Position numbers and translations under genes: made by a program. Below, piece by piece: positions 4,399 to 42,627 of a stretch of 64,000 nucleotides of DNA. Origin of the DNA: Candidatus Limiplasma sp. (GTDB taxonomy: Bacteria > Bacillota > Clostridia > Christensenellales > Aristaeellaceae); the NCBI GenBank assembly GCA_045538465.1, contig JAZSRK010000017.1:14863-78862 (forward strand). Direction: 5' to 3'. The notes beneath the pieces are model-generated. The model was not told the origin of the DNA. It ran no database searches and was given only the letters and a program-made list of their open reading frames with translations. Within the stretch, counting starts at the first letter, position 1; every line of letters starts with the position of its first letter.

Positions 4399-4515
4399 AT
4401 TCCTTGTATATAAGCTGACCAAAGCTTGCCAAACTGCCAAGAACCGTATACAGGCGGCTATATGTCTGCGCTTTGTTATGCGGAATGCATACACTTCAGG
4501 AAATGGAGCGATCTT

Positions 4516-5454
4516 GTGAATATCATCCTTTTGGGTGCGGCCGGGTTTATCGGCACCAATTTGACCCTTGCGCTTGCCAAGGATCCCGGTCATCAGATCA
4601 CTGTTGTGGATCGGGATTTGTCGTATTTTCAGCCGGTCATCCGCAGCAAAGCGCCTCAAGTACGCCTGGTGGTCTCCAGCCTGACCGCCGAAGACGATTA
4701 CGAGACCTTGCTCAAGGGGCAGGATGTGGTATATCATCTCATCAGCACCACGGTACCCACCACCTCCAACCAAGCCATCGCTGAGGAACTGAAGGCGAAT
4801 GTGGTTCTTTCTGCCAATCTTTTGGAAGCATGCGTGCATCAGGGCGTGCAGAAGGTGGTATTTATTTCTTCCGGCGGTACAGTCTATGGCAAAACGCAGG
4901 AATGCCCCATCCCCGAAACAGCGCCTACCGACCCCATTTCTTCCTACGGCGTGCAGAAGATCACCATCGAAAAGCTGCTGTATTTGTACCATTGCATGTA
5001 TGGTCTCGATTACCGGATCATCCGTCTGGCCAATCCCTACGGTCCGTACCAGCGCCCCAACGGCGTGCTGGGCGCCATTACCACCTTTACCTATAAAGCC
5101 CTTTGCGGCGAGGAGATCCAAGTGTATGGCGACGGTTCCGTTATGCGCGACTTTATCTATATCGACGATGCGGTGCGCGGCATCCTTCGCATTGTGGATG
5201 GCAATGCCAAAGAGCGGCTTTTCAATCTTGGCAGCGGCTACGGCACAAGCCTTCGCTGCGTGCTGGATACCATTCAAAAAACGCTGGATATCCCGGTCAA
5301 GGTATCCTACGCTCAAGGCAGAGGCGTGGATGTACCCGTCAATTATTTGGATATTTCTCGTTATGAAGAAGCGTATGAGCCTCTGGAGCCCATTCCATTG
5401 GAGGAAGGCATCCAAAAAACGGCTACCTTTATGAAGGAATATTATCATCTGTAA
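4516..5454 (+). CDS. NAD-dependent epimerase/dehydratase (GalE-like extended SDR)
   Basis: N-terminal Rossmann motif LLGAAGFIGTN and YxxxK (SSYGVQK). GTG 4516 was chosen because the Rossmann motif starts right after it; an upstream ATG start cannot be excluded. Confidence 0.8.
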   Translation: MNIILLGAAGFIGTNLTLALAKDPGHQITVVDRDLSYFQPVIRSKAPQVRLVVSSLTAEDDYETLLKGQDVVYHLISTTVPTTSNQAIAEELKANVVLSANLLEACVHQGVQKVVFISSGGTVYGKTQECPIPETAPTDPISSYGVQKITIEKLLYLYHCMYGLDYRIIRLANPYGPYQRPNGVLGAITTFTYKALCGEEIQVYGDGSVMRDFIYIDDAVRGILRIVDGNAKERLFNLGSGYGTSLRCVLDTIQKTLDIPVKVSYAQGRGVDVPVNYLDISRYEEAYEPLEPIPLEEGIQKTATFMKEYYHL

Positions 5455-5457
5455 AAA

Positions 5458-5494
5458 AGCGGGGGGAAAAACATCCCTCCGCTTTCGTCTGTTT
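5458..5494 (+). terminator. probable terminator after the SDR gene
   Basis: AGCGGGGGGA-aaaaca-TCCCTCCGCT stem followed by a T-rich tail (TTCGTCTGTTT). Confidence 0.6.
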
Positions 5495-5688
5495 AATGCC
5501 TCCAGCGTAAGCAGAGCCAAACAAAAGATCGGATCATTTACCGAACAGAATATATAACAGCTAAGAAAAACACAAATAATGCTATTCATTCGGGCAACGA
5601 AACGCAAGAGAAATGCCGATGTGGCGGCAAAAATACTGCAATGACCTTCGTCGTATTTTCAACAGCGAAGCCACCTTGTAAGAATAAC

Positions 5689-5717
5689 TTGCTACAAAAG
5701 GTATTTTGTTGTATTAT
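5689..5717 (+). promoter_or_regulatory. sigma-70-type promoter for the capF/capG-like pair
   Basis: TTGCTA (5689-5694), 17-nt spacer, TATTAT (5712-5717). Confidence 0.6.
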
Positions 5718-5776
5718 ATCATTGACCAATTTGGTCCATTAGGAATGATTTGATCACCGAAGGAGAATCCTTTCTT

Positions 5777-7021
5777 ATGAAAGTACTGGTCACCGGTGCA
5801 GCAGGCTTTGTGGGAAAAAATCTGGTAGAAAATCTGCGCACTCTTCAGGACGGCAGAAACAAGACCAGACCCTGCCTGTCCATTGAAGCCGTTTATGAAT
5901 ACGATCAAAATAACACCTTGGAAGAATTGGAACAGTTCTGCAAGGATTGCGACTTTGTGTTTCACCTTGCCGGTGTAAACCGCCCGCAGGATCCCGAAGA
6001 GTATCAACAGGGAAACTTCGGTTTTGCATCTACGATTCTGAGCATATTACAGAAACATGGGAACAAAGCACCCATTATGCTCAGCAGCAGCATTCAGGCC
6101 ACGCTGGCCGGGCGTTTCGGCACATCGCCCTACGGGCTGTCCAAAAAGGCGGGGGAAGAACTGTTTTTCCAGTACGCCGCCGATACCGGCGCCACGGTGT
6201 ATGTGTATCGCTTCCCCAATCTGGTGGGTAAGTGGGTACGCCCCAATTACAACTCCGCCGTGGGCACCTTCTGCCACAACATCGCCAATGATCTGCCCAT
6301 TACAGTAAACGATCCTGCTGTAGAGCTGGAAATGCTGTTTATCGACGATCTGATCGAAGAGATGTACGATGCCATGGAGGGCAGACCTCACCGCTGCGAT
6401 TACCCAGAAGCAGGTACTGCGGTAAACGGGGTCACCTACGATGGGCTCACCCCCTGCTGGGCAGCAAACGGAAGATACTGCGCTGCACCCGTTACCCACA
6501 AAGCAACGCTGGGTCGTATCGTGGAGCTGCTCCACACCTTCCGCGACCAGCCCAAGAGCTTGGTGATGCCCGCCATCCCCAACGGTTCCTTCGAAAAGAA
6601 ACTGTATAGCATGTATCTATCCTACCTGCCCAAGGAAAAAGTCGCTTTTGATTTGAAAATGAACTGCGACGACCGCGGCAGCTTTACCGAACTTTTAAAA
6701 ACAGCCGATCATGGTCAGTTTTCCGTCAATATTTCCAAGCCTGGCATCACCAAGGGGCAGCACTGGCATAACAGCAAGTGGGAGTTCTTTATGGTAGTTT
6801 CCGGGCAGGGGCTCATCCAGCAGCGTCGCATCGGCTCCGATGATGTGCTCAACTTCCGTGTTAGTGGCGAGCGCATTCAGGCTGTTCATATGCTGCCGGG
6901 ATACACTCATAACATCATCAATCTCAGCGAGACGGAAAACTTGGTGACCGTTATGTGGGCAAATGAAAACTTCGCTCCCGCCCACCCAGATACTTTCTTT
7001 GAGCCTGTAGAAAATGCGTGA
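5777..7021 (+). CDS. capF: CapF/FnlB-type bifunctional SDR-cupin enzyme (UDP-L-FucNAc pathway reductase/epimerase)
   Basis: The blocks HLAGVNRP, SSSIQAT, PNYNSAVGTFCH, LYSMYLSYLP, DDRGSFTE, VNISKPGITKGQHWH, YTHNIINL and VTVMWANE..P..PDT match my recollection of S. aureus CapF. It has an N-terminal Rossmann fold and a C-terminal cupin. Confidence 0.85.
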   Translation: MKVLVTGAAGFVGKNLVENLRTLQDGRNKTRPCLSIEAVYEYDQNNTLEELEQFCKDCDFVFHLAGVNRPQDPEEYQQGNFGFASTILSILQKHGNKAPIMLSSSIQATLAGRFGTSPYGLSKKAGEELFFQYAADTGATVYVYRFPNLVGKWVRPNYNSAVGTFCHNIANDLPITVNDPAVELEMLFIDDLIEEMYDAMEGRPHRCDYPEAGTAVNGVTYDGLTPCWAANGRYCAAPVTHKATLGRIVELLHTFRDQPKSLVMPAIPNGSFEKKLYSMYLSYLPKEKVAFDLKMNCDDRGSFTELLKTADHGQFSVNISKPGITKGQHWHNSKWEFFMVVSGQGLIQQRRIGSDDVLNFRVSGERIQAVHMLPGYTHNIINLSETENLVTVMWANENFAPAHPDTFFEPVENA

Positions 7022-7033
7022 GGTGACACTCTC

Positions 7034-8200
7034 ATGGCTTCTTTCCAGAACAATGGTAAGCTAAAACTGCTCATTATTGTCGGCACCAGACCGGAAATTA
7101 TCCGTCTGGCAGCGGTCATCAAGAAGTGCAGAAAATACTTCGACACCATTCTTGCCCATACCGGTCAGAACTACGATTATAATCTTAACGGCGTGTTTTT
7201 TCACGACTTGGAACTGGCTGACCCGGATGTATATCTCAATGCGGTGGGCGATAACCTTGGGCAGACCATGGGCAATATCATTGCCAAGTCTTACGAGCTG
7301 ATGGTGGAGCTTCAGCCCGATGCGGTGCTGGTGTTGGGCGATACCAACTCCTGCCTGTCTGTGATCGGCGCCAAGCGCCTGCATATTCCCATTTTTCATA
7401 TGGAAGCAGGCAACCGCTGCAAAGACGAATGCCTGCCGGAGGAGACCAATCGGCGCATTGTGGATATTATTTCCGATGTTAATCTGGCTTATTCGGAGCA
7501 CGCCCGCCGCTATCTGGCCGATTGCGGTCTGCCTAAGGAGCGCACCTATGTGACTGGTTCGCCCATGGCAGAGGTATTGCATATGAACCTTGCCAAGATC
7601 GAAGCATCCGACATCCACAGCCGTCTTGGTCTGGAAAAGGGAAAGTATATACTGCTCTCCGCCCATCGTGAAGAAAACATCGATACGGAAAGCAACTTCC
7701 TCAGCCTGTTCACGGCTATCAACCGCATGGCAGAGAAGTATGATATGCCCATTCTCTATTCCTGCCACCCCAGAAGCCGCAAGCGGCTGGAGGCGACTGG
7801 TTTCCAACTGGATGCCCGGGTGATCCAGCATGAACCGCTGGGTTTCCACGATTATAACTGCTTGCAGATGAATGCCTTCTGCGTAGTGTCGGATAGCGGC
7901 ACTTTGCCGGAGGAAAGCAGCTTTTTTACCTCCGTGGGACATCCTTTCCCGGGTGTGTGCATCCGCACCTCTACCGAGCGCCCAGAAGCGCTGGATAAAG
8001 CTTGCTTTATTCTTTCCGGCATCGATACCAAGGGGCTTTTGCAGGCGGTGGATACGGCAGTGGAAATGGTACGAAACGAAAAGGATGGGGGAGCCCTTCC
8101 CGTACCGGACTATGTGGATGAAAACGTATCCGATAAAGTGGTCAAGATCATCCAGAGCTATGTTGGCGTAGTGAACAAGATGGTCTGGAGAAAGTACTGA
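7034..8200 (+). CDS. capG: non-hydrolysing UDP-N-acetylglucosamine 2-epimerase, CapG/FnlC type
   Basis: IVGTRPEIIRLA and HTGQNYDYNLN motifs. It lies 12 nt after capF, as in cap5/fnl loci. Confidence 0.85.
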   Translation: MASFQNNGKLKLLIIVGTRPEIIRLAAVIKKCRKYFDTILAHTGQNYDYNLNGVFFHDLELADPDVYLNAVGDNLGQTMGNIIAKSYELMVELQPDAVLVLGDTNSCLSVIGAKRLHIPIFHMEAGNRCKDECLPEETNRRIVDIISDVNLAYSEHARRYLADCGLPKERTYVTGSPMAEVLHMNLAKIEASDIHSRLGLEKGKYILLSAHREENIDTESNFLSLFTAINRMAEKYDMPILYSCHPRSRKRLEATGFQLDARVIQHEPLGFHDYNCLQMNAFCVVSDSGTLPEESSFFTSVGHPFPGVCIRTSTERPEALDKACFILSGIDTKGLLQAVDTAVEMVRNEKDGGALPVPDYVDENVSDKVVKIIQSYVGVVNKMVWRKY

Positions 8201-8269
8201 TCGATCAGCTTTGATTCGCCTCATGGCGATTCGAATAGGTAAATGGCACCTCTGGCGCAGGAGGCATGG

Positions 8270-8450
8270 CGGAGGTGCTATAGCGCCAGGCCCTTCGGGG
8301 TGACGAGGTTGACAGTTTATCGAAAAACTCGGCGGATGCTGTCACGGCGTGCAGTAGGGAAATCCTGCGTACCAAGCTTCTTTATGGCTTGGCAGGCAAA
8401 CAGACCCGTACTGTATGGTGCGTCGTCAGAGAGAAAGCAAAAAGCGGAAT
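8270..8450 (+). ncRNA. glmS ribozyme (GlcN6P-dependent self-cleaving riboswitch)
   Basis: 8282-8346 reads A/GCGCCAGG-CCCUUCGGGG-U-GACGAGG-UUGACAG-UUUAUCGAA-AAAC-UCGGCGGAUGC-UGUCAC. These are the conserved core blocks in canonical order. UUGACAG/CUGUCA pair, and a P3/P4-like segment (ACCAAGC..GCUUGG) follows. Predicted cleavage is between A8282 and G8283. The 3' boundary is approximate. Confidence 0.85.
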
Positions 8451-8570
8451 CAACACCGTAACAGAGATTCTCTCACCACCGGAATGGTTTATTTCGGGGT
8501 ATACAGGGAAACCTTTTCCCTGGCAGATCCCCAAGAAAAACAAAAATAGATAGTAAGGAGAATAACGCAG

Positions 8571-9362
8571 ATGAGAGTAGTTATTCAGGACAATTACGAA
8601 AAAATGTGCCTTTGGGCAGCCGGTTACATTGCAAACAAGATCAAGAACCATAAGGAAGACCGTCCCTTCATTCTGGGTCTGCCCACCGGTTCTTCTCCCA
8701 TTGGCGTGTACAAGGAACTGGCCCGCATGAATCAGGCTGGCGAACTTTCCTTTGCCAACGTGGTCACCTTCAACATGGATGAATATCTGGGCCTGCCCCA
8801 CGAGCATGACCAGAGCTATTGGTACTTCATGCACGAGAATTTCTTTGATCATCTGGTGGATATGAAGCCCGAGAACATCAACATTCTCAACGGCATGACC
8901 GACGATCCCGAAGGCGAGTGCGCCCGCTACGAAGAGAAGATCGCTTCCTATGGCGGCATCGACCTGTTTATGGGCGGCATCGGCGTGGATGGCCACATTG
9001 CTTTCAACGAGCCCTTCACCAGCCTCACCTCCCGCACCGGCGTGCGCAACCTGACCTCCGATACCCGCATCGTCAATTCCCGCTTCTTTGGCAACGATCC
9101 CGAGAAGGTGCCCTCTCAGGCCCTGTCCGTGGGTGTTGGCACGGTGACCGATTCCAAGGAAGTGCTCATTCTCATTAACGGCCACAACAAGGCTCGTGCA
9201 CTGGCTGCCACTGTGGAAGGCGCTGTCAGCTCCAAGTGGACCTGCTCCGCTCTGCAGAACCACAACGGCGCTATCATCGCTTGCGACGAAGCTGCCTGCG
9301 GCGAGTTGCTGGTGGATACCTACAAGTATTTCTTGGATATTGAGAGAGGGGAACGACTGTAA
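8571..9362 (+). CDS. nagB: glucosamine-6-phosphate deaminase/isomerase (E. coli-type NagB)
   Basis: Similar along its length to my recollection of E. coli NagB: LGLPTGSSP, VVTFNMDEY, FMGGIGVDGHIAFNEP, VGVGT. AAGGAG RBS. Confidence 0.9.
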   Translation: MRVVIQDNYEKMCLWAAGYIANKIKNHKEDRPFILGLPTGSSPIGVYKELARMNQAGELSFANVVTFNMDEYLGLPHEHDQSYWYFMHENFFDHLVDMKPENINILNGMTDDPEGECARYEEKIASYGGIDLFMGGIGVDGHIAFNEPFTSLTSRTGVRNLTSDTRIVNSRFFGNDPEKVPSQALSVGVGTVTDSKEVLILINGHNKARALAATVEGAVSSKWTCSALQNHNGAIIACDEAACGELLVDTYKYFLDIERGERL

Positions 9363-10024
9363 TGTATACGATCGCAGATCTGTACGATTTGGAGCATACC
9401 CTTGCAGCAGAGTACCTTCGTCAGTTTACCTATCCTTGGGAGGCTCTCAAGGGCATCAAGGACATGATCGTTCAGCTGGGCGAGAACCTTGGCGATGAGT
9501 ACGAGGAAGTTTCCAAGCAGGTTTGGGTGCATAAGACCGCCGAGGTGGCTCCCACCGCTTATCTGGGCGCTCCCTGCATTATCGGCCCCAAGACCGAAGT
9601 ACGCCATTGCGCTTTCATCCGTGGTGCTGCGCTGGTGGGTGCCGATTGCGTCGTGGGCAACTCTGTTGAGCTGAAAAACGTCATCCTGTTCGACCATGTG
9701 CAGACTCCCCACTACAACTATGTGGGCGACTCCATTCTGGGCTATTACAGCCACATGGGCGCCGGCAGCATTACCAGCAACGTCAAGTCCGATAAGCAGC
9801 TGGTAGTTGTCCGTGATGGCACGGAAAAGATGGAGACTGGTCTTAAGAAGTTTGGCGCTATGCTGGGTGATTATGTAGAAGTTGGCTGCAATGCCGTGTG
9901 CAACCCCGGCACGGTGGTGGGTCGCAACTCCAACGTCTATCCTACCTCCTGTGTAAGAGGCGTTGTGCCCGCAAACTCCATTTGGAAGAACAATGGCGAA
10001 GTGATTCACAAGGAGGAAAAGTAA
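9362..10024 (+). CDS. left-handed beta-helix (hexapeptide-repeat) acyltransferase resembling the GlmU C-terminal domain; putative GlcN-1-P N-acetyltransferase
   Basis: Hexapeptide-repeat pattern. HYNYVGDSILG..MGAGSITSN..FGAMLGDYVEVGCNAV parallels the GlmU acetyltransferase half. The start overlaps the nagB stop by 1 nt (TAATG). No nucleotidyltransferase domain. Confidence 0.55.
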   Translation: MYTIADLYDLEHTLAAEYLRQFTYPWEALKGIKDMIVQLGENLGDEYEEVSKQVWVHKTAEVAPTAYLGAPCIIGPKTEVRHCAFIRGAALVGADCVVGNSVELKNVILFDHVQTPHYNYVGDSILGYYSHMGAGSITSNVKSDKQLVVVRDGTEKMETGLKKFGAMLGDYVEVGCNAVCNPGTVVGRNSNVYPTSCVRGVVPANSIWKNNGEVIHKEEK

Positions 10025-10025
10025 C

Positions 10026-11375
10026 ATGGGTAAGTATTTCGGAACGGACGGTTTCCGTGGCGAAGCCAATAAGGATCTGTCGTTTGAACATGCAGTAAAG
10101 ATCGGTCGATTCCTTGGTTGGTACTATGGTGCCAAGCAGGGCAAGAAGGCCAAGATCGTCATCGGTAAGGACACCCGGCGCAGCTCTTATATGTTTGAGT
10201 ACGCCCTGTGCACTGGTCTGATGGCTTCCGGCGCAGATGCTTACATCATGCACGTGACCACCACACCTTCCGTGGCCTATATTACCCGTGTGGATGATTT
10301 CGACTGCGGCATCATGATCTCCGCTTCCCACAACCCCTACTACGATAACGGCATCAAGCTGCTCAACGGCAATGGTGAGAAGATGGACGAAGACACCATT
10401 TTGCTGGTAGAAGACTACATCGACGGCAAGGTGGAAGTGCCCATTGCGGAGCGTAACGATATCGGCCGCACGGTGGACTATGCCTCCGGCCGCAACCGTT
10501 ACATCGGCTACCTGATCTCCATGTCCAAGTACAGCTTCAAGGGCGTGAAGGTGGGTCTGGACGTGGCCAACGGCGCTGCTTGGCAGATCGCCAAGGGCGT
10601 GTTTGAAGCACTGGGTGCCAAGACCTACGTGATGAACGATGCTCCCGACGGCTACAACATCAATACCGATTGCGGCAGCACCCACATCAAGCATTTGCAG
10701 AAATTCGTGGTGGATAATCAGCTGGACGTGGGCTTTGCCTATGATGGCGATGCCGACCGTTGTCTGTGCGTGGATGAGTAGGGCAACGAGATCACCGGCG
10801 ACCACATCCTCTACATCTACGGTTTGTACATGAAGGAGCGCGGCAAGCTGCTCAACAACAAGGTGGTTACCACCATCATGTCCAACTTCGGCCTGTACAA
10901 GGCACTGGATAAGGTGGGCATCGACTACGAAAAGACCGCTGTGGGCGACAAGTATGTGTACGAGAACATGGTTGCCAACGGCCACCGCATCGGCGGCGAG
11001 CAGTCTGGTCACATCATTTTTTCCAAGTACGCCACCACCGGCGACGGCATCCTGACCAGTCTGAAAATGATGGAAGTGCTGCTGGCTAAGGAAAAGCCCA
11101 TGAGCGAACTGGCTGCTCCTGTGGTGTTCTATCCTCAGGTGCTCAAGAATGTGCGTGTCAACAGCAAGCCCGAGGCTCAGAACGACCCCGATGTGCAGGC
11201 GGCCGTAAAGAAGGTTGCCGACGAGCTGGGCGATTCTGGCCGCATTCTGGTGCGTGAAAGCGGCACCGAGCCCGTCATCCGTGTGATGGTGGAAGCGGAA
11301 AGCGACGAGATCTGCAAGAAGTATGTGGATTCCGTTATCGATGTCATTCGCGCCAAGGGTCATATCGTTGGCTGA
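10026..11375 (+). pseudogene. glmM: phosphoglucosamine mutase GlmM, frame interrupted by one in-frame TAG (10779-10781)
   Basis: ISASHNP phosphoserine loop and FAYDGDADR metal loop lie before the stop; the GGEQSGH sugar loop lies after it. Both halves (10026-10781 and 10824-11375 in the ORF track) are in the same frame. Confidence 0.9.
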
Positions 11376-11519
11376 TCGGTATTAACCAAAAAACAAACTC
11401 TGGTGCACATCAACAGGGATGGAAAGGAATATTTATCCCTTGCGTTGCATTGCGCAACAGTAGGGGCTGTCTAAAAACAAGAAGATATTACCAATTCATC
11501 GTGAAAAACTGTCAAAAAA

Positions 11520-11562
11520 GGCATGGAACGTTGCCGGATGTGCAACATTCCATGCCTTTTCA
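11520..11562 (+). terminator. rho-independent terminator closing the nagB-glmM operon
   Basis: GCATGGAACGTTGC-cggatgt-GCAACATTCCATGC hairpin followed by a T-rich tail (CTTTTCATTTCTT). Confidence 0.8.
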
Positions 11563-16099: not shown

Positions 16100-19000
16100 A
16101 TGAAGAATTCAATGCAAAAGTTTATCGCCATGATGCTATCGATCTTGCTGGTTTTTGGGCAGATCGCTACGCCTGTGCTTGCAGCAACATCTGACGACGT
16201 GACCCTCAACGGCAATGTAATGCCTTTGGCGGTTCCGGGCTCTGCAGGAATTTTGGATTTTGATCCCTACTCCGACTATGTGGAGAGCGAGATCGTTCTA
16301 ACAAACCCAGATACCGGCGCGCCCTATCCGGATGACCACCAGTTTTCCAATGGCGATGAGCTTCGCTTTACGGTGCGTTTTGAGTTGGATGCCAGCAATG
16401 CTTGGTATGTTGATAATACTCAACAAAAAGAGTGCAAATATTTGATCCGTGAAGCCTATCGTCAGGGCTACACGGGGCCTGATGATAATGCCCAGCAAAC
16501 TACGCTGCCTCAGATCGACGAGAATACTGTGTTTACCATTCCCTTCAAAGGGCTACAGTATCTGGCACAGGCCAACAATCTTCCTTGGAGCGAGGCACAG
16601 AAGCAGCCAGCCCTTATCGGTGCTACGTATAACGTAGCATTCTATTGGTGGTTGGATCGCGCTACCAATAAGCTTTGCCTCACTTTCACCAAAGAAGCGT
16701 TGGATGGTTCTAAGGGCCACGATACGCTCAATAATTTGTTTATCAACGTTAAAGGTGTATTGGATACCAGCCAGCTTTCTGGACAGAACAGTGCTGATTT
16801 TACCGTCGGCAATGTGAATTTTCAATTGCCGCTGGCGGCTTCCTACAATATCAGTAAGAATTCCCAGATGGTTTATAACAAAAACACCGGCAACTACGAT
16901 ATCAACTATACTGTAAGACTGAATGTAGACCGTGAGGTGGATCTTTCCGCTACCCAACTGAACATTTTGGATACGGTTTTTGATAATTCTATTATTGGCA
17001 AGCCCAGCAATGTGTCGGTAACCACCAACAGCGGCGATGACGTGGGCGTGACCGTTACCAATGTGGACAACAAAAATACCAAGTTCCAGTTTACTTCCAA
17101 CGATCAAAAGCTGGCAAAGGGCGAGTATGTTATTACCTATACCTCGCCTGTTACCCAAAGTTTTGATTCGCTTTTTGCCAATAATGGCGAGGGCTATAGG
17201 AACCTTGGCGGCGACCAGCGCAAGAATGCTGTACAGGTATATCAGGGCAACGAGCCCACCAACACAAGAGCAGATTCCTATCTTAATTGGGTTTCTCCCG
17301 GCGAAGAGACCCGCATCCATAAGTCTGCCGTTCATAATGGCAATACCTTAAACTACAACAACATTTACAGGGAAACCGTAAACGGCCAGACGGTTTATTA
17401 TGTAAACTTCTATCTGGAAGCGAAAATCAAAAACGAAGCAAGCTCCATTACCCTGACCGATGATGGCGGCCAGTGGCTGAGCCATGTAAACGAGCAGCCG
17501 CAGCTTTTGTATATTCAAAAGGGGTTGGATGAAGGCTACGACCCCAATACCATGGGCACTGCTCAAGGCGTATCGGTATCCACAGCCGATAATGGTTCTG
17601 TGCGTACCTATACGTTGAATGGTTCTCCCATTCCAGCGGGCGTGTACCGTCTTAACTATCGCATGCAATTAAAGCCCGAGGCAGTGGAGCAATTGCTCAG
17701 CGGTGCCTCCATGCCCAATATCGTAAACAATGCGACTTTCGCCACACTGGATAACCAGTCCGTACCCCACCGCAATACACAGACGAATGTTTCCATTCCC
17801 AATCGTGATGCATCTTCCAAGAGTTATCATGTAACTACGTTGGAGGACGGAACCAAGCTGGTGCAATGGACGCTGAATTTCCGCTGGAATTTCTTCCAAG
17901 ATGAGGGTCTCAGCAATGTAGTTGATACGTTGACCAACGGCACCTACTATATTGCCGAAGGTTATCCTTTCGTTATCAATAACAATTATCAGCAGCGTGC
18001 CTCCATTACAGATGCAGCCAACGCTGGCAATATTGGCGTTGTTTTCAACGAAGACAAAACATCCTTCACCTTTACGCTGGGCAATACCGGCAACAACGAA
18101 GAACGGACGGATGCTTTCTATAGCATTACCTATTATACCAAGGTAGAACCGGATGCGGAGGGCAACTATCCTTCGCATACCAATAGTTATGATGTAAATT
18201 ATTCCTTCAATGGCACCATCGGCGGCGATGAAGGAAACGTAACGGTCAATTTTGATGATCCTTCCGATCCCGATAACCCCAACAACCCTGATGATCCCCA
18301 GAACCCCGGAGAAAACGTTATCGAAGTTTCTCCCACGAAAAAACACCAGAGCTCCACGTTCGATAAGAGCAGCCAAACTGTTGTTACCACATGGGAAATC
18401 GAAGTGGATCTGTCCAATCTGCCCTTGGAGCGCATGACGTCATTCCAGATCTCCGATGTGATCCCCGATCATATGAAAAACTACATGAACATCACGGATG
18501 TCTCTGTGTACGGCAGAGGTCATGATTGGAATGTAGCGGCCAACTTTACCGAGAATACTGATTATACCGTCACCAAGACTTCCGACGATCTGTGGACGGT
18601 CACCATGTCCGAAACGGCCTTGAGGGAAGGCTGCGAGAACGTTCGTTGGCTATGCGTCGCTGTTACTACCAGCAGCAGTCTTATCAACCCTTCTCAAGAA
18701 GATCAAAATTATCAGAATTTCTGCCGATTGGATTATACCTATTCGCCCGTGAACCCCGAGGCGGAGGATTTTGTTGTATCCAAAACCTCCGATGCTTGGT
18801 GCAATTACAAGCGTTTGCTTTCCAAGAAGGAAGTTTCTGCTTACAGCGACTTTTATAACTCCACTACTAATCAATATGCAATGAATCAGGATGGTAAAAA
18901 CGATATCGTTTGGCAATTGTCCCTCAGGGATACAGCTTTTGTAAATCGCGGTACCGCTACTACCGTTACCATCACCGATACGCTGCCCGTTACAGGGGCT

Positions 19001-21199
19001 GGTGTGCCTATTTTCCAGTTGATCGAGCCATCTGTCAGAGTTCGTAGTACCTCCGTATACGATGGAAGTGCATCCATCTATATAGAAAATTACACATTGC
19101 AAAGCGATGGCAACTGCTTTACGCTTACTTTTGATGTGCCTGCCGATTGGCGGTCCGATACGGTTTATGTGCTCTATTGCTGCGATTTTACCAAAGAGTT
19201 CATGTCCACCATTACGGGCGATACCCATCTGAATAATGCAACCAACAACGCTACCGTAGAGTGGGATGGCGGCTCCCAGCAGCTAAAAGCCAATCTTTCC
19301 CTGAATATACCGGATAAGCGTCTTAACAAGACCGGTTCAGTCTCCAACGACCATTCCATGGTCAACTATACCATCAAGATCAATGAGTATGGGCAGGATC
19401 TGGACGCAACGAGCGATACGCTAGTGCTTACGGATCGGCTCAACAGCAGCAGCGTTGTATATGCGCAGGCCAGCTTTGTGCTTAAGGATAGTTCCGGCAA
19501 CACCCTTACACGCAGCGGGTATGCATCTGCTAATACATATCGCCTCAAATTCAGCGAAGATGGTAAGAGTTTCGAATTGGAAGTTCCCGATGAGACCAGC
19601 TTGACACTGATCTATTTTGCCGATCCCACCATCCAGATCGGTCAGCAGACAGGCAATATTGAAAATGTTGTTTCTCTGCAAAATATCAGCCGTCACTTCA
19701 CGGTTAACAGCTTCAAGGTAGACATGTCTTCTGCCGGCGCCAGCACTGCGCTGCCCAAGGGCGCATGCGGCGTGATGGTTTATAAAAACGATGGCGAGAC
19801 AGACCTTCCGCTGGATGATGCAGTCTTTACGATCTACAAAGTAGATCCTCAGCTGCAAGAGACCGAAACCAGCAAAACCGGTACTACGGTCGATGGTCGT
19901 ACGACCTTCACCTTCCCTGCCGACGAAGAAGGCTTTGGCTTTGATCAGGTCTATTGCCTTCGTGAAACGGAAGCCCCGGAAGGGTATCAAAAGAACGATA
20001 ATGCGTGGTATTTCTACTTCGTCCAAAGAGATGCTGACGGAGTGGTGATGGAACCCAGCGCATCCGTGCAGGCTACCATTGATGCCTTGACCGCCGTTGG
20101 AAAAACTGTTTACGTCAATCCTGAATTGGAAACCTACGTTTATACTGCTGTGAATATGCCGCGAACGCAGATAACGGCTGTCTTTACCTTTACCAAGGTA
20201 GACGAGAACGGTGCACATCTTGATGGTGCAAGCTTTACGCTGACGGATGCTGACCAGCAGCCCGTAACTGCGAAGGCAGGCACCACCACTGGCGTGTTCA
20301 CTTACGAGAACCTGCTGCCCGGCACTTACACCTTGACCGAAATTGCAGCCCCCGCAGGTTATGCAAAGCCCGCCAATACCACATGGACAGTCACAGTAGA
20401 TGCTACAGGTGCAGTCACCGTCACCGGTGCAGATTACAACACCACCAACAACACCATTACCAATACGCTCATCACTGCTGATTTCACCTTTACCAAAGTG
20501 GATGAAAACGGCACGGCGCTTGGCGGAGCGACCTTCACGCTGACAGATGCGCAAGGCAACACCATCAGAGCAGCTGCGAATACGGCGGTTGGCGTGTTTA
20601 CTTACGAAGATCTGCTGCCCGGTACCTATATCCTTACGGAAACTGCTGCTCCTGTAGGCTACCACCTGCCCGCCAATACCCGTTGGCAGGTGACGGTCGC
20701 TCTTGATGGAACGATCTCAGTCATCGGCGCAGACTTCAACACGGCTACCAACACCATTATCAACAAACAGATCCGCCGTATGTTTACATTTACCAAGGTG
20801 GATGCAGTTGATGCATCGCTCAAACTGGCCGGCGCACGTTTTGAACTGTCCGGTAATGGTTACAGAGCACAGGCTGATTCTGACCGATACGGCAAGGTGG
20901 TATTTACCGATCTGCTGCCTGGCGAATATACTCTGAAGGAAGTCAGCGCCCCCAGCGGATATGTAAGATGCCCCCAGACGTGGAAACTAACGGTACATCT
21001 GGATGGTACTTTCGATGTGGATGGTCGTACCAATGTGCGCGATCTCTACCAGATCGCCAATAGCCGCAGTGGATACATTCCTCAGACTGGTGCTATCACT
21101 TGGCACAAGGATGTTGTACTTACTTTAGGCTATGTACTGTTCATGCTGGGCGCTGTTATGATGCTTTGTCGCCGTAGGAGGGATCGGCATGAAAAATAA
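16100..21199 (+). CDS. cell-wall-anchored giant adhesin with four C-terminal Cna-B/SpaA-type modules and an IPQTG sorting signal
   Basis: Signal peptide ending PVLA/ATS. Repeated FTFTKVDENG...LLPGTYTLTE.AAP.GY modules at about 19760-21050. The C-terminus is IPQTG + hydrophobic segment + RRRRDRHEK. Confidence 0.9.
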   Translation: MKNSMQKFIAMMLSILLVFGQIATPVLAATSDDVTLNGNVMPLAVPGSAGILDFDPYSDYVESEIVLTNPDTGAPYPDDHQFSNGDELRFTVRFELDASNAWYVDNTQQKECKYLIREAYRQGYTGPDDNAQQTTLPQIDENTVFTIPFKGLQYLAQANNLPWSEAQKQPALIGATYNVAFYWWLDRATNKLCLTFTKEALDGSKGHDTLNNLFINVKGVLDTSQLSGQNSADFTVGNVNFQLPLAASYNISKNSQMVYNKNTGNYDINYTVRLNVDREVDLSATQLNILDTVFDNSIIGKPSNVSVTTNSGDDVGVTVTNVDNKNTKFQFTSNDQKLAKGEYVITYTSPVTQSFDSLFANNGEGYRNLGGDQRKNAVQVYQGNEPTNTRADSYLNWVSPGEETRIHKSAVHNGNTLNYNNIYRETVNGQTVYYVNFYLEAKIKNEASSITLTDDGGQWLSHVNEQPQLLYIQKGLDEGYDPNTMGTAQGVSVSTADNGSVRTYTLNGSPIPAGVYRLNYRMQLKPEAVEQLLSGASMPNIVNNATFATLDNQSVPHRNTQTNVSIPNRDASSKSYHVTTLEDGTKLVQWTLNFRWNFFQDEGLSNVVDTLTNGTYYIAEGYPFVINNNYQQRASITDAANAGNIGVVFNEDKTSFTFTLGNTGNNEERTDAFYSITYYTKVEPDAEGNYPSHTNSYDVNYSFNGTIGGDEGNVTVNFDDPSDPDNPNNPDDPQNPGENVIEVSPTKKHQSSTFDKSSQTVVTTWEIEVDLSNLPLERMTSFQISDVIPDHMKNYMNITDVSVYGRGHDWNVAANFTENTDYTVTKTSDDLWTVTMSETALREGCENVRWLCVAVTTSSSLINPSQEDQNYQNFCRLDYTYSPVNPEAEDFVVSKTSDAWCNYKRLLSKKEVSAYSDFYNSTTNQYAMNQDGKNDIVWQLSLRDTAFVNRGTATTVTITDTLPVTGAGVPIFQLIEPSVRVRSTSVYDGSASIYIENYTLQSDGNCFTLTFDVPADWRSDTVYVLYCCDFTKEFMSTITGDTHLNNATNNATVEWDGGSQQLKANLSLNIPDKRLNKTGSVSNDHSMVNYTIKINEYGQDLDATSDTLVLTDRLNSSSVVYAQASFVLKDSSGNTLTRSGYASANTYRLKFSEDGKSFELEVPDETSLTLIYFADPTIQIGQQTGNIENVVSLQNISRHFTVNSFKVDMSSAGASTALPKGACGVMVYKNDGETDLPLDDAVFTIYKVDPQLQETETSKTGTTVDGRTTFTFPADEEGFGFDQVYCLRETEAPEGYQKNDNAWYFYFVQRDADGVVMEPSASVQATIDALTAVGKTVYVNPELETYVYTAVNMPRTQITAVFTFTKVDENGAHLDGASFTLTDADQQPVTAKAGTTTGVFTYENLLPGTYTLTEIAAPAGYAKPANTTWTVTVDATGAVTVTGADYNTTNNTITNTLITADFTFTKVDENGTALGGATFTLTDAQGNTIRAAANTAVGVFTYEDLLPGTYILTETAAPVGYHLPANTRWQVTVALDGTISVIGADFNTATNTIINKQIRRMFTFTKVDAVDASLKLAGARFELSGNGYRAQADSDRYGKVVFTDLLPGEYTLKEVSAPSGYVRCPQTWKLTVHLDGTFDVDGRTNVRDLYQIANSRSGYIPQTGAITWHKDVVLTLGYVLFMLGAVMMLCRRRRDRHEK

Positions 21200-21920
21200 G
21201 CTTGCGCTTGTTTTGATGATCGTCGGTGCGCTTATGATGCTCGCCTCTGTAGGAATGACGATGTATCAGGATCACGAAGAAACCGTTGCCAACGAAACAG
21301 TAATGGCCGTGACAGATGATGTTCAGCAAGCGGTGCAAAAGAACGCTGCATTTCTTGCGCTCGAGCCGCGACCGGAAGAGCAGCCGGTCGCGGACGAGGC
21401 ATCAACTGGCGTAGATACGCCGGTTGTAGCTATTGTAGCAACAACCGGTGGATCTGCAGAGCCGACCATCGTACCGGATCCGATCATGGCAGCGGATGAA
21501 GCCCCACAAACTATGCCGATCGTTTATGTTGATGGCAAAGCGTATATCGGTATGCTGACGATCCCTTCCTTGGAACTTGATTTGCCCATTCAGGAGCAGT
21601 GGAGCTATGCCAAGTTGAAGCAAACACCGTGTCACTACAGCGGCACTGTTTATGAAGGCAACCTGGTTTTGATCGCCCACAATTACGACAGGCATTTCGG
21701 TCGCCTCAGTACCCTCAAGCAGGGAGACAGTGTGCTGTTTACCGATGCAAACGGAATGGTCTATTATTTTGAGGTAGAAGTTTTGGAAACGTTGCAGCCC
21801 AATCAAAACGACTATTTGACCTCTGGCTTGTGGGACTTGAGCCTCTCCACCTGCACCATCGGGGGAAGGCAGAGAAATGTGGTTCGTTGCCGGAGGGTAG
21901 ATCCCCTTGCGGTTCCATAA
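21189..21920 (+). CDS. sortase-family transpeptidase (class not assigned)
   Basis: N-terminal TM anchor, LIAHNYD His motif, LSTCT catalytic Cys motif, and a downstream Arg (RNVVRCRR). The start overlaps the last 11 nt of the adhesin gene. Confidence 0.85.
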   Translation: MKNKLALVLMIVGALMMLASVGMTMYQDHEETVANETVMAVTDDVQQAVQKNAAFLALEPRPEEQPVADEASTGVDTPVVAIVATTGGSAEPTIVPDPIMAADEAPQTMPIVYVDGKAYIGMLTIPSLELDLPIQEQWSYAKLKQTPCHYSGTVYEGNLVLIAHNYDRHFGRLSTLKQGDSVLFTDANGMVYYFEVEVLETLQPNQNDYLTSGLWDLSLSTCTIGGRQRNVVRCRRVDPLAVP

Positions 21921-36510: not shown

Positions 36511-38631
36511 ATGCAAACTGAGCTACATGTGCGCAGAAGAATACTGGGGCTTTTGGTTTTGTTTGCCTTTGTATTTTTGGTATTGTTTCTGCGCATCGCA
36601 TATTTGACTACCTTTCGCTCTGCCGCGCTTACACAGCGCGGCATTCGTCAATGGACCCGAGAAGGCACCGTCTATGCCAGACGTGGACGCATTTTGGATC
36701 GAAACGGCGAAACGCTGGTAATGAGTGCAACGGCGTACATCGTTAACGCTGACCCCAGAAAGATCGAAGATCCTGAGGCGTTTGCTGCACTGGTCGCTCC
36801 GGTGCTTTCCATCAGTGAAGAAACCGTGCTCAGCCGCATCAGCGACCGAACAAAAGCTTCTGTCACATTAAAAAGGCAAGTTTCTGCAGAAGTGGTGGAT
36901 GTGCTGCGCAAGTTGCAGCTCAGCAGCGACGAGACGATAGCTGCACTGGCGAATGCAATATTGTTTGATGAGGATGTTCGCAGAGTGTATCCTCGGGGTG
37001 CGTTTCTTGTGCAGGCACTTGGGTTGACCAACATCGACAACGTTGGTCAGTCGGGCATTGAGATGCAATACGATCAGCTGCTCAGAGGCGTTGAGGGACG
37101 AATTCTCAGAACGGTGGACGGGCATAACAATACCGTATATGATAGCGGCAATCTCTACGTGGAGCCGCAGGATGGCAACGACCTGAAGCTGACCATTGAT
37201 GTCAACATTCAGGAGATCTGCGAAAAGGCGATGCGGGAATGCTATCAGGTAAACAAGGCGCAGGCCGTGCACGTTATCGCTATGGATCCCTATACCGGAG
37301 CAATATTGGCGATGTGCTCCAAACCGGATTACGACCCCAACGACCCGCCCCGCAACGAAGCGGATGCCTTGCAGCAGCTGATGCGTATTCGCCTCATCTG
37401 CGATGCCTACGAGCCCGGTTCCACGTTTAAGATCCTTACGGCAGCTGCAGCGCTGGATAGTGGTATCACAACCCCGGAGGAAGGATTCTATTGCTCCGGC
37501 AAGATCAAAGTGGATGGCGATACGATCCGCTGCTGGGGCAATCCCCACGAAAGCGAGAGCATGGCGCAGGCTTTGGAAAACAGCTGCAATCCGGTGTTTG
37601 TGGAACTGGCGCTGCGCATAGGGCCCGAACGATTCTACAGCTATATCCACGCCTTCGGTCTTGGTGTGAAAACCAATGTTGACTTACAGGGGGAGGGAAG
37701 TGGTATACTGATACCGGTCAGATCTGTCAAGAATGTGGATCTGGCACGGATCGGTTTCGGGCAGAGCATTGCGGTCACACCGCTGCAGTTGCTTACAGCA
37801 GCCTGCTCCGTCATCAATGGCGGGCGGCTGATGCGCCCCTATCTTGTTGCGGAAGTGCTCACGCCGGAGGGGGAGGTTCTGCAAAGAACGCAACCCAAGG
37901 TGGTCGCCCACCCTATCAGCGAAGAAACCTCCATGACCATGCGGCTTCTTCTGGAAAATGTGGTCAGTGTGGGCGGTGCCAAAAATGCCCGGATAGACGG
38001 TTACCGCATCGGCGGAAAAACCGGCACGGCACAGGTTTACAAGGACGGGCGCATCGTTAGCAATGTTCACATCGGTTCCTTTCTGGGCTTTGCTCCGGCA
38101 GACGACCCGAAGATCGCCCTGTTGGTGATCGTAGACGAGGCAGATGTGCCGGTGGACTACGGCGGCACAACAGCAGCTCCCTTCGCTCGACAAATTCTTG
38201 CGGATGTGTTACCTTATTTAGGTGTCGAGAGCAATGCCGGAGAGACGGAACAAATCGTTCTGCCGGATGTGAAGGGGCAAGCGCTGTGGCAAGCAAGGCA
38301 ACAGATGGAAGGCCTTGGCTTTACCGTGTTGACAGACGGCGGCGATGGCAGCGCACCCGTGACGGCGCAAATGCCGCGCGCAGGCGCATCTCTGGCGAAG
38401 GGCGGGCAATTGATGCTCTATACGCAACAGCAGCCGGAGGCGGAGACGTTGGTCTGCGTACCCGATCTGTATGGTCTTTCACTGGCTGAAGCTTCCGCAA
38501 TGCTGCGGCGGCGGGGGCTGGAGATGGAATTGGACGGCAGCGGCTTCGCTGTTGAACAGGTTCCGGCAGCGGGCGAATTTGTTTCACCCGGAACGCTCGT
38601 AAAAGTAACATTTGTTTTCCCAAACCCATAA
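36511..38631 (+). CDS. class B penicillin-binding protein (FtsI/SpoVD/PBP2B type) with two PASTA domains
   Basis: STFK, SCN and KTGT motifs. Two C-terminal PASTA-like repeats (PDVKGQ..., PDLYGL...). Confidence 0.92.
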   Translation: MQTELHVRRRILGLLVLFAFVFLVLFLRIAYLTTFRSAALTQRGIRQWTREGTVYARRGRILDRNGETLVMSATAYIVNADPRKIEDPEAFAALVAPVLSISEETVLSRISDRTKASVTLKRQVSAEVVDVLRKLQLSSDETIAALANAILFDEDVRRVYPRGAFLVQALGLTNIDNVGQSGIEMQYDQLLRGVEGRILRTVDGHNNTVYDSGNLYVEPQDGNDLKLTIDVNIQEICEKAMRECYQVNKAQAVHVIAMDPYTGAILAMCSKPDYDPNDPPRNEADALQQLMRIRLICDAYEPGSTFKILTAAAALDSGITTPEEGFYCSGKIKVDGDTIRCWGNPHESESMAQALENSCNPVFVELALRIGPERFYSYIHAFGLGVKTNVDLQGEGSGILIPVRSVKNVDLARIGFGQSIAVTPLQLLTAACSVINGGRLMRPYLVAEVLTPEGEVLQRTQPKVVAHPISEETSMTMRLLLENVVSVGGAKNARIDGYRIGGKTGTAQVYKDGRIVSNVHIGSFLGFAPADDPKIALLVIVDEADVPVDYGGTTAAPFARQILADVLPYLGVESNAGETEQIVLPDVKGQALWQARQQMEGLGFTVLTDGGDGSAPVTAQMPRAGASLAKGGQLMLYTQQQPEAETLVCVPDLYGLSLAEASAMLRRRGLEMELDGSGFAVEQVPAAGEFVSPGTLVKVTFVFPNP

Positions 38632-38647
38632 GGATGGAGGAATACCA

Positions 38648-40105
38648 ATGCTGTTAAAGGATTTGCTGACAGAGGTACCGTGCATTGCGGAAACCACCGG
38701 AAATATGATGGTCGAGATCGATCACCTGATCACCGACAGCCGTGAACAAACTGTCAACGGTCTGTTCTTCTGCATTCCCGGTGCACGGGTGGATGCCCAC
38801 GATTTTGCACCGCAGGCAGTAGCGAATGGTTGCGTGGCTTTGGTGGTAGAACGCATTCTGCCCCTGCCTGTGCCGCAATTGCGGGTGGAAAATGTCCGTT
38901 CTGCAGTTGCTTATATAGCAGCAGCCTTCTTTGGTCACCCTGCACGCAGACTGCGCATGATCGGCATCAGCGGTACCAAGGGCAAAACCACTACCAGCTT
39001 CCTGCTGAAGGCGATCATGGAAAAAGCGGGCTATGCCACTGGTCTTATCGGCACCACCGGCAACATGATCGGCGAAAAACGCATCAAAAGCAACCTGACC
39101 ACCCCCGATCCCATCGACCTGCATCGCTGCCTTAAGCAAATGGTGGATGAGGGCGTGGAGGTAGTGGTAATGGAAGTGAGCGCCCACGCGGTGGATATGC
39201 ACCGCTTGGATGGTATTACCTACGAAGCTGCTTGCTACACCAACTTGTCGCAGGATCATCTGGATTATTTCGGTACGATGGAGAACTATTTCGAAACGAA
39301 GAAAAGTTTCTTCATGCACGGAGCAGTGCTCAACGCTGCTTTGAATGAGGATGACGAGACCAGCGACAGGATCATCGACGACATCAGCATCCCGTACCTT
39401 ACCTACGGTATCAGCTCGGAGGCCGATGTGTTTGCCCGTGATATCGAGATCACCGAAAATGGTGTTTCTTTCTCCATCCAGCTCAGGGGCGAGGAGGATA
39501 TGGCTGTTAATATGCAGCTGACCGGCATGTTCAATGTGTATAACGCATTGGCTGCGGCTTCTCTTGCAATGATTGTTGGTGTGCAGAATTGCGATATCAA
39601 GCTGGGTCTGGAAAGTCTCAAAAATGTACCCGGACGTGTAGAAATGCTGGATACCCGTACCCCCTATAAAGTGATCCTTGATTATTCCCACTCCCCGGAT
39701 GCGCTGGAAAACATTCTTTCCACCGTACGCACCTTCACTCGCAATCGGCTGATCGTGCTTTTCGGTTGCGGCGGCGACAGAGATCAGGGCAAGCGCCCCA
39801 TTATGGGCGAGATCGCGGGACGGTTGGCTGATTATTCCATCCTTACCAGCGACAACCCCCGCACGGAAGACCCCATCGCCATTCTGGAAGCGATCGAGAA
39901 CGGCGCCAAGGCAGTCGGCGGCAGCTATACGGTTATCGAAAACCGCCGTGAAGCCATCCGTTATGCCCTCAACATGGGTCGGGACGGCGATGTGATCATC
40001 CTCGCCGGTAAAGGGCATGAGACCTATCAGGAAATTATGGGCGTAAAGCGTCCCTTTGACGAGAAGATCGTCGTTAACGAATTGCTTGCGGAAATGCAAG
40101 CTTGA
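38648..40105 (+). CDS. murE: UDP-MurNAc-L-Ala-D-Glu:meso-DAP ligase
   Basis: GISGTKGKTTT P-loop and the DNPR DAP-specificity motif (SDNPRTEDP). Confidence 0.93.
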   Translation: MLLKDLLTEVPCIAETTGNMMVEIDHLITDSREQTVNGLFFCIPGARVDAHDFAPQAVANGCVALVVERILPLPVPQLRVENVRSAVAYIAAAFFGHPARRLRMIGISGTKGKTTTSFLLKAIMEKAGYATGLIGTTGNMIGEKRIKSNLTTPDPIDLHRCLKQMVDEGVEVVVMEVSAHAVDMHRLDGITYEAACYTNLSQDHLDYFGTMENYFETKKSFFMHGAVLNAALNEDDETSDRIIDDISIPYLTYGISSEADVFARDIEITENGVSFSIQLRGEEDMAVNMQLTGMFNVYNALAAASLAMIVGVQNCDIKLGLESLKNVPGRVEMLDTRTPYKVILDYSHSPDALENILSTVRTFTRNRLIVLFGCGGDRDQGKRPIMGEIAGRLADYSILTSDNPRTEDPIAILEAIENGAKAVGGSYTVIENRREAIRYALNMGRDGDVIILAGKGHETYQEIMGVKRPFDEKIVVNELLAEMQA

Positions 40106-40125
40106 ACACGAAGGAGTGACTCGCC

Positions 40126-41148: not shown

Positions 41149-41187
41149 GCGTGGAGAACCACACCTGATTTGTGGAGGTGAACGGCT

Positions 41188-42549: not shown

Positions 42550-42627
42550 AGAAAACCCTTCCCACAGGTGGAAGAGATGTGTACAAATGCTAGCATCTTC
42601 ATTCGCATGTGGGGAGGGTCTGCCTTT

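Follow-up and report, generated by a model that had tools for sequence, protein, structure and literature searches.

We describe here a predicted self-cleaving RNA of the glmS class, and the genes that it precedes, on a contig of Candidatus Limiplasma sp. (GenBank assembly GCA_045538465.1, contig JAZSRK010000017.1, positions 14,863 to 78,862 of the forward strand); this whole stretch of 64,000 nucleotides, numbered from its first letter, is referred to below as the window. A 5' hairpin, P0, and the ribozyme that follows it, together 8243-8474 on the + strand, would form the leader of a three-gene hexosamine operon consisting of nagB (8571..9362), a gene for a GlmU-type acetyltransferase of the LbH family (9362..10024) and glmM, the gene for phosphoglucosamine mutase (10026..11375). 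Whereas the canonical glmS ribozyme lies directly upstream of glmS, the gene for the glutamine-dependent Fru6P (fructose-6-phosphate) amidotransferase (GFAT), here it is nagB, the LbH gene and glmM that lie downstream. An earlier note on this DNA had claimed this wiring, and it is borne out by the gene layout, with no GFAT-type glmS found by tblastn in the 64-kb window.

The ribozyme and its operon

When all 4227 Rfam families were scanned over the 64 kb, RF00234 (glmS) was the sole family with a match, at 8271-8362 on the + strand, scoring 37.3 bits where the gathering score is 37 (E = 3.6e-05; E = 2.6e-07 for a 471-nt region scanned alone against RF00234). The score is borderline because an insertion of ~70 nt in helix P3 hides the P3/P3.1/P4 domain, so that the P3/P4 half of the model is skipped, with 9 nt standing in the alignment in place of 51 + 18 consensus positions. 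Where P3 is short, relatives from this lineage score 38-71 Rfam bits, those without a large insertion 50-71. We built a covariance model, R1, from a hand-written six-helix structure (P1, P2, P2a, P3, P3.1 and P4), and rebuilt it as R2 from 34 relatives with the window left out, to avoid circularity. R1 matches over its full length both the window, at 8272-8479, and 55/80 related loci (L001-L080, introduced below), and R2 gives exactly one match in the window, again at 8272-8479, where the whole model is covered at 121.7 bits (E = 3.6e-26) and a 67-nt insert is placed inside the P3 loop. The covariance search that the earlier note had recommended thus turns out positive, at threshold with the Rfam model and far more strongly with R2.

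Self-cleavage is predicted between A(-1) and G(+1), 8282..8283, from the Rfam alignment to the consensus 'aAGCGCC', and the catalytic core spans 8283..8344 by the RF00234 alignment and helix pairing. The conserved blocks are A^GCGCC (8282-8287), GACGAGG (8302-8308), UUUAUCGA (8316-8323), CUCGGCGGAUGC (8328-8339) and CGGCGGAUG (8330-8338), interleaved with P1 (8290-8293 / 8298-8301, with a UUCG loop), the P2 arms UGACAG / CUGUCA (8310-8315 / 8339-8344) and P2a (8320-8323 / 8329-8332). The core nucleotides AGCGCC, GACGAGG, UUAUCGA and CGGCGGAUG, all present at 8282-8338, are invariant in 6/6 aligned sequences and in nearly all of the 55 relatives, AGCGCC being invariant in every one of them. P3 (CGGCG / CGUCG, 8345-8349 / 8421-8425, within a P3 region of 8345..8425) encloses the lineage-variable insertion of ~70 nt, an extended hairpin at 8350-8420 that folds on itself (dG -34.5, z -2.6). 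It is followed by a peripheral domain at 8429..8474, in which P3.1 (GAGAGAA / UUCUCUC, 8429-8435 / 8468-8474) encloses P4 (GCGG / CCGU, 8444-8447 / 8456-8459) and a conserved AACAGAG is found at 8460-8466. All of the core blocks that the earlier note had listed on the + strand could be located, at 8282-8344; the end it gave for the ribozyme, 8346, is too early, since P3, P3.1 and P4 run to 8474.

The helices were examined on two alignments. Five homologous leaders, reached via the neighbouring LbH gene, share with the window a common 3' block, AAAAAGCGGAAUCAACACCGUAACAGAG, with complementary arms on either side, and in the hand alignment of these 6 sequences (A1) 94.1% of cells are paired and 11 pairs have changed on both sides. 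In the R1-based alignment (A2, 58 rows) 95.9% of cells are paired, with double changes in 19/31 pairs, although A2, having been fitted to the model, leans towards the structure and is best read beside the 94.1% of A1. The values observed on A2 are reached by none of 500 shuffles (0/500), and the share of paired cells falls to 35-52% in slid controls. Helix by helix, P1, P2 and P2a are paired in 99-100% of cells with compensatory changes present (56 sequences), P3 is paired in 97.9% with 3 covarying pairs on A2, and double changes on A2 affect all 8 P3.1 pairs and 2/4 P4 pairs; the peripheral domain is thus assigned by the manual structure on A1, by covariation on A2 and by R2. The putative pseudoknots P2.1/P2.2 have the expected complementarity (e.g. 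CGCC 8284-8287 with GGCG 8331-8334) in columns that are invariant and therefore carry no covariation signal. Judged from sequence and pairing, the window RNA is a complete glmS-class ribozyme, in agreement with the class in every structural respect that could be tested.

A spacer of 96 nt leads from the ribozyme end (8474) to the nagB ATG, 10 nt 5' of which a ribosome-binding site, AAGGAG (8555..8560, + strand), can be read from the sequence; the ribozyme had correctly been placed before nagB, at a distance (~230 nt) that proved too long. The LbH gene overlaps nagB by 1 nt, a 1-nt gap separates it from glmM, and the operon ends in an intrinsic-terminator-like hairpin (11516..11560, + strand; dG -26.4 kcal/mol, z -5.6, 0/200 shuffles as stable) followed by the U-tract UUUUCAUUUCUU, which a simple scan overlooked, probably owing to an internal stem mismatch. 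The packing of the three genes and the one strong terminator had been described before and both stand. A terminator together with an independent promoter that would uncouple nagB was also looked for; over the whole of 8000-8571, which includes the interval from the ribozyme to nagB, the + strand showed no site resembling a promoter or a terminator.

The NagB protein (263 aa; TIGR00502, 372.9 bits against a cut-off of 236.9) is of the long type, like the E. coli enzyme, with PDB 7lqm (3e-97) and 1cd5 (8e-93) as nearest solved relatives. Aligned with the solved 7lqm and 7lqn, it retains the NMDEY Asp, the DGH His and the NEP Glu, which we take to be catalytic from the roles of these residues in E. 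coli NagB. The LbH protein (220 aa) is a stand-alone match to the C-terminal GlcN-1-P (glucosamine-1-phosphate) N-acetyltransferase domain of ST0452 and GlmU: phmmer finds PDB 2ggo/5z09 at 1e-21 and then GlmU C-terminal domains, and of TIGR03992 (141 bits) only profile positions 212-393 are matched, this profile and TIGR01173 both remaining below cut-off with C-terminal parts only. ST0452 His308, Tyr311 and Asn331, presumably the catalytic residues of that enzyme, are identical in the LbH protein (PH..Y.GDS, N), whereas no Lys stands opposite Lys337 or Lys340. No nucleotidyltransferase domain was found in it, Pfam giving LbH domains only, so that the database name 'UDP-N-acetylglucosamine pyrophosphorylase' is misleading.

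GlmM matches TIGR01455 in two halves of 283.5 and 236 bits (profile positions 1-249 and 251-441), with domains I-IV and the phosphoserine loop ISASHNP present; the frame is broken by an in-frame TAG at 10779-10781 (VDE*GNE), and in this the previous description of the operon needs correction. The position is Lys (AAG/AAA) in 68/71 relatives. Recoding of TAG, as in pyrrolysine use, was rejected, glmM being the only real gene in the window that is split by TAG, and the codon is an isolated nonsense mutation or a base error. One could go further and regard the whole cassette in this genome as a non-functional remnant headed by a ribozyme relic, given the nonsense codon, the large P3 insertion, the Rfam score barely at threshold and the lack of a clear promoter of the cassette's own. 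We consider this very improbable: the core nucleotides and the helices are all intact, nagB and the LbH gene are full-length, P3 insertions of like size are common in relatives with intact operons (190-250-nt matches in L003, L010, L011, L021, L022, L026, L030 and L054), and the single A-to-T change is explained equally well by a sequencing or assembly error.

Recurrence of the ribozyme-led cluster

More than 590 relatives of the LbH protein are found in a one-genome-per-species collection, of which the best 80 (79-88% identical, mostly from rumen and gut metagenome-assembled genomes) define loci L001-L080. NagB, LbH and GlmM are clustered in nearly all 80 loci, in several gene orders, and in 55/80 loci, whatever the order, the cluster's first gene is preceded at 29-256 nt by a ribozyme of this lineage on the coding strand, the carriers being mostly rumen and gut Clostridia. 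The order ribozyme-NagB-LbH-GlmM accounts for 41 loci, ribozyme-LbH-NagB-GlmM for 6, ribozyme-LbH-GlmM-NagB for 3, ribozyme-LbH-GlmM for 2 and other ribozyme-led orders for 3. Among the 25 loci without the ribozyme, several end at contig borders, and seven, of the order NagB-GlmM-LbH, have instead a palindrome, TATACTCC-N4-GGAGTATA, and no Rfam match upstream of the cluster. In L036, L039, L042, L052, L070 and L073 the palindrome lies ~120-160 nt upstream of nagB, beside a divergently oriented gene, and looks like a protein operator in place of the RNA switch. An Rfam scan of 13 ribozyme-less loci found no RNA like that of hepatitis delta virus (HDV) and no other known RNA at the cassettes by gathering threshold.

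Metagenome contigs scanned with the pattern common to all glmS ribozyme cores gave at least 120 stretches. Among the matches listed, 100 precede a GFAT glmS and 8 the cassette, the other 12 being unclassifiable or too short, which puts the cassette-wired share at 8/108 classifiable cores, or ~7%, of those listed. The cassette wiring is a recurrent, conserved minority form of glmS ribozyme context and not a one-off, and the survey of related neighbourhoods that had been suggested for this locus extends the claim made for it to 55/80 loci and these 8 contigs. On one human gut metagenome contig (L107) an open reading frame begins ~420 nt after a glmS ribozyme core; its first residues, MCGIVGY, are GFAT-like, but an abrupt change in sequence follows, and the gene may be a chimera or a disrupted glmS. 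A short P1 was considered as a marker of the lineage and ruled out, being present also in some glmS-preceding ribozymes.

Across relatives the cassette proteins are 80-95% identical at a DNA identity of 70-83%, and the homology ends at the cassette borders. The bin labels of these relatives span families and even phyla (Lachnospiraceae, Oscillospiraceae, Acidaminococcaceae, Erysipelotrichaceae, Atopobiaceae), and the high protein identity across labels could come from unusually strong constraint, from lateral spread long ago or from wrongly labelled bins.

A second feature of the lineage is P0 (8243..8281, + strand, recognised by folding against shuffles), which abuts the cleavage site and carries a Shine-Dalgarno (SD)-like GGAGG in its loop (8260-8264, + strand), with no start codon after it. 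In the window the stem is GGCACCUC / GAGGUGCU, lengthened by A-U pairs (dG -22.3, z -5.6). Over the 40 nt 5' of the cleavage site the lineage has a common layout, in which a conserved UAAAA is followed by a variable, mutually complementary stem around a purine-rich loop, usually with GGAGG, and the stem closes with UU and leaves A(-1) unpaired; equivalents with differing stem sequences are found at L003-L077, L093, L109, L119, L142, L174 and L179. RNAalifold returned no structure for the MAFFT alignment of the 5' leader, because stem indels break that alignment, and each sequence was therefore folded against its own shuffles, which gave z < -2 for the P0 region in 46/55 cassette leaders. In a like-for-like test, cassette leaders have a mean dG of -11.1 and z of -2.8, with positions -3 and -2 paired in 81%, against a mean dG of -4.2, z of -0.6 and pairing of these positions in 33% for 105 ribozymes that precede glmS; GGAGG occurs in 27/32 cassette leaders (25/32 at -19 to -22) against 31/102 elsewhere, there at scattered positions. 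P0 is largely particular to the cassette-linked ribozymes and mostly missing before glmS. The 5' mRNA stabilisers of Firmicutes include 5'-terminal stem-loops and STAB-SD elements. P0 resembles these in being a stable hairpin near the 5' end and in having an SD-like GGAGG without a start codon after it; it differs in its placement, where ribozyme cleavage would detach it, and in that its role is putative. P0 may thus be a 5' mRNA stabiliser that is detached by cleavage.

The direction of NagB and the proposed feedback

In the canonical system, GlcN6P (glucosamine-6-phosphate) binds the pre-folded glmS ribozyme as a cofactor, and after cleavage the downstream fragment, bearing a 5'-OH, is quickly broken down; in B. 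subtilis this is the work of RNase J1. Suppose that the window ribozyme acts in the same manner. When GlcN6P is plentiful, cleavage at A8282^G8283 would be followed by degradation of the downstream RNA, and all three enzymes would fall; when GlcN6P is scarce, the operon would be on, NagB would make GlcN6P from Fru6P and NH4+, and GlmM and the acetyltransferase would carry the product on to GlcNAc-1-P (N-acetylglucosamine-1-phosphate), for which the uridylyltransferase would be encoded elsewhere. P0 with its GGAGG loop would probably stabilise the uncleaved mRNA and would be lost on cleavage, making the switch sharper. The result would be a glutamine-independent supply of hexosamine for wall or polysaccharide, suited to ammonia-rich rumen and gut habitats, with the NagB route either replacing or supplementing GFAT-type GlmS. 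As a whole, this scenario of a ribozyme-led operon that is turned off by GlcN6P and contains an aminating NagB is in our view the best explanation of the locus, and one that we hold to be reasonably probable. Of the pathway of entry into UDP-GlcNAc (UDP-N-acetylglucosamine) proposed earlier, GlmM and the GlmU-like acetyltransferase are there; the uridylyltransferase step is not in the cassette.

The argument starts from regulation: expression at low GlcN6P of an operon that begins with nagB makes sense if NagB forms GlcN6P. Gene exchange among relatives adds to it. At L054 a GFAT glmS lies 7 nt after glmM, inside the ribozyme-led operon, and at L008 glmS is also downstream; a catabolic NagB co-expressed with GlmS at these loci would create a futile cycle. 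At L002 glmS occupies nagB's slot (glmS-LbH-glmM), and in Ruminococcus albus SY3 (L202) the order FnlA-FnlB-(PglD_N)-WecB-GlmS-LbH mirrors FnlA-FnlB-WecB-[ribozyme]-NagB-LbH in the window.

These same loci bear on the opposite proposal, according to which cleavage removes an inhibitory P0 whose GGAGG acts as a decoy, GlcN6P induces the operon, and NagB stays catabolic. All three products do act on GlcN6P or a derivative of it, in that NagB deaminates, GlmM isomerises and LbH acetylates GlcN-1-P, and ribozyme-LbH-glmM operons without a GlcN6P-forming gene exist (L057, L075, L113, L174). P0 being specific to the cassette-linked ribozymes, the fate of the cleaved RNA could also differ from the canonical one, and deamination is generally favoured by NagB enzymes (PMC5902328). 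The same lineage of ribozyme and P0, however, heads the operons with GFAT glmS at L054 and L008, where glmS would be induced by its own product, a perverse arrangement, and glmS and nagB exchange in one slot at L002 and L202. Moreover, nagA, transporter and PTS (phosphotransferase system) genes were not seen beside the cassette in the neighbourhoods examined, and GlcN6P-triggered cleavage lowers expression of the downstream mRNA in every characterised glmS ribozyme (PMC5473149, PMC2258182). Induction by GlcN6P thus seems to us quite unlikely.

The NagB sequence itself is distinctive. All 70 cassette NagBs have [FY]TSL.SRTG[VLI]R.LT where solved NagBs have ASSL.SRTRIKTLT; the window enzyme has SRTGVRNLT, that is T..G.R in place of the allosteric-site residues of the solved enzymes (SRTRIKTLT). 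The three changes relative to the solved enzymes, Ser to Thr, Arg to Gly and Lys to Arg, are invariant in the 70 cassette sequences, at positions that we take to correspond to E. coli Ser151, Arg158 and Lys160 of the GlcNAc6P (N-acetylglucosamine-6-phosphate) allosteric site in the hexameric enzymes. L053 encodes a second, short NagB of 246 aa (9876-10616 of that locus), nearest to the NF001684 subfamily, 2.4 kb downstream of the cassette's long NagB, which fits a division of labour between two enzymes. Family searches of the window, L204 and L206 found no nagA or PTS genes next to the cassette, the neighbours being envelope and polysaccharide genes. Taking together the slot exchange, the allosteric motif, the second NagB of L053 and these neighbours, we infer that the cassette NagB probably aminates Fru6P with NH4+ to GlcN6P as a biosynthetic enzyme under product feedback; the aminating direction claimed by the earlier note is in this sense favoured, though not proven.

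Several observations weigh against such an enzyme in such an operon. Akkermansia muciniphila, a directly comparable precedent, is without GlmS, and its NagB, with a Km of 41 mM for NH4+ and 5.5 mM for Fru6P, was judged unable to aminate physiologically (PMC5902328). L057 and L075 have the layout ribozyme-LbH-glmM with no GlcN6P-forming gene nearby, so that the ribozyme can also precede pure GlcN6P consumers. P0 is the one feature that could lend support to induction by GlcN6P. In the window, no convincing sigma-70 promoter was found between the wecB end (8200) and the ribozyme, no uridylyltransferase gene lies in the cassette, and the nonsense codon in glmM means that this copy may be decaying, or that the base is an error. 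With these points in mind, it is only tentatively that we extend the biosynthetic scenario to many rumen and gut Firmicutes, a generalisation that we regard as possible but would not yet call probable. They would make GlcN6P from ammonia by a specialised NagB with a remodelled allosteric site, together with GlmM and the stand-alone acetyltransferase, under the control of a glmS-ribozyme sub-lineage that is distinct and has a detachable 5' stabiliser, and in many species this route would have replaced GFAT GlmS.

Directly upstream of the ribozyme, on the same strand, the window has FnlA-, FnlB/WbcJ- and WecB/FnlC-like genes (4426-8200), families that presumably use UDP-GlcNAc. The 82 nt from the wecB end to the ribozyme are without a terminator-like or promoter-like site, and there may be read-through into the cassette from the polysaccharide genes upstream. 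In another reading the cassette is an accessory module, with a ribozyme-led glmS, glmM and glmU elsewhere in the genome, which boosts supply for the adjacent UDP-GlcNAc-consuming genes while its NagB operates near equilibrium in either direction. In the window, L204, L206 and R. albus the cassette does border on clusters for polysaccharide or teichoic acid, a nonsense codon would be intolerable in an essential single-copy glmM, and GFAT glmS stands alongside the cassette at 9/80 loci. Very strong purifying selection on the three proteins, as seen in their amino-acid identity relative to that of the DNA, and the match of the two glmM halves together to the housekeeping equivalog TIGR01455 speak against it, and we consider it unlikely as a separate account. 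It would in any case still need an aminating NagB when the operon is on, and so is a variant of the biosynthetic scenario and not a contradiction of it.

Additional LbH copies are found in R. albus at the ends of polysaccharide clusters (L201, L202 and L203, including plasmid CP002404.1), directly after GFAT glmS in L201 and L202, and followed by an uncharacterised PF14907 nucleotidyltransferase in all three; no ribozyme was found at these R. albus copies. Elsewhere in the window, 16100-21920 encodes a 1699-aa protein with repeated SpaA (pilin-type) domains, with a sortase gene after it, a probable locus for a sortase-assembled surface fibre. A division and cell-wall (dcw) cluster with genes for a penicillin-binding protein, MurE, MraY, MurD, FtsW, a MurA-like protein, FtsA and FtsZ lies at 36511-49055, ~25 kb from the cassette, and a dipicolinate synthase gene at 52651 points to a spore former within the Clostridia. 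The remainder of the window consists of chromosomal housekeeping genes.

Significance and comparison with known systems

In the reviews covered here the glmS ribozyme is treated as a regulator of glmS alone (PMC5473149, PMC2258182). A lineage that governs nagB, an acetyltransferase gene and glmM widens the glmS-ribozyme regulon, and it argues strongly, from regulation, that in anaerobic habitats rich in ammonia NagB can serve as a physiological GlcN6P synthase; if this is true, metabolic reconstructions of the hexosamine pathway for rumen and gut Clostridia will have to change. The cassette NagBs also offer a clade-specific sequence signature open to enzymology, and the leader a possible two-part RNA device made of stabiliser hairpin and ribozyme. 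A drug that targets the glmS ribozyme and activates it would, in carriers, silence three steps of the pathway simultaneously. The RNA class is known and its gene context is non-canonical; the amination reading, while still inferential, is the best supported one. No account of a glmS ribozyme preceding nagB was found in a search of the full-text literature, whose coverage did not extend to the main census (McCown et al. 2011), so that a prior mention is possible.

With the canonical glmS ribozyme of B. subtilis and Thermoanaerobacter tengcongensis (RF00234) the window RNA has in common the identical core blocks A^GCGCC, GACGAGG, UUAUCGA and CGGCGGAUG, the P1/P2/P2a/P3/P3.1/P4 architecture, the position in a 5' leader on the coding strand and, presumably, GlcN6P as cofactor in a negative feedback. 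It differs from it in the downstream genes, which are nagB, the stand-alone acetyltransferase gene and glmM and not GFAT glmS, in a P1 of only 4 bp with a tetraloop, in the ~70-nt insertion in P3, in the conserved P0 with its GGAGG loop abutting the cleavage site, and in the loop of P4, where an 8-nt AAUCAACA takes the place of a tetraloop docking on P1 (compare PMC11602151). In E. coli, hexosamine supply is likewise under post-transcriptional feedback that senses GlcN6P, exerted by GlmY/GlmZ/RapZ on glmS, though by a protein sensor and small RNAs without a ribozyme, and with glmS as the sole target (PMC7073468, PMC4152352).

For NagB-type conversion of Fru6P and NH4+ to GlcN6P in the synthesis of envelope sugars, proposals also exist outside this cassette. 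Overexpression of nagB in E. coli can suppress a glmS deficiency. For Gnp, the NagB-family enzyme of Giardia, an anabolic use has been proposed in encystment (PMC4281351). In contrast to these two cases, the one in the window is known from regulation and genomics only.

In gene context, the closest analogue is drz-Fpra-1, a ribozyme whose link to GlcN6P is one of allosteric modulation and not of cofactor use. Going by its citation in PMC6765202, it is an HDV-like ribozyme upstream of glmM in Faecalibacterium prausnitzii. On that account, it belongs to a class other than glmS and yet resembles the ribozyme described here in being a self-cleaving RNA in gut Clostridia, placed before a hexosamine gene that is not glmS, with a proposed response to GlcN6P.

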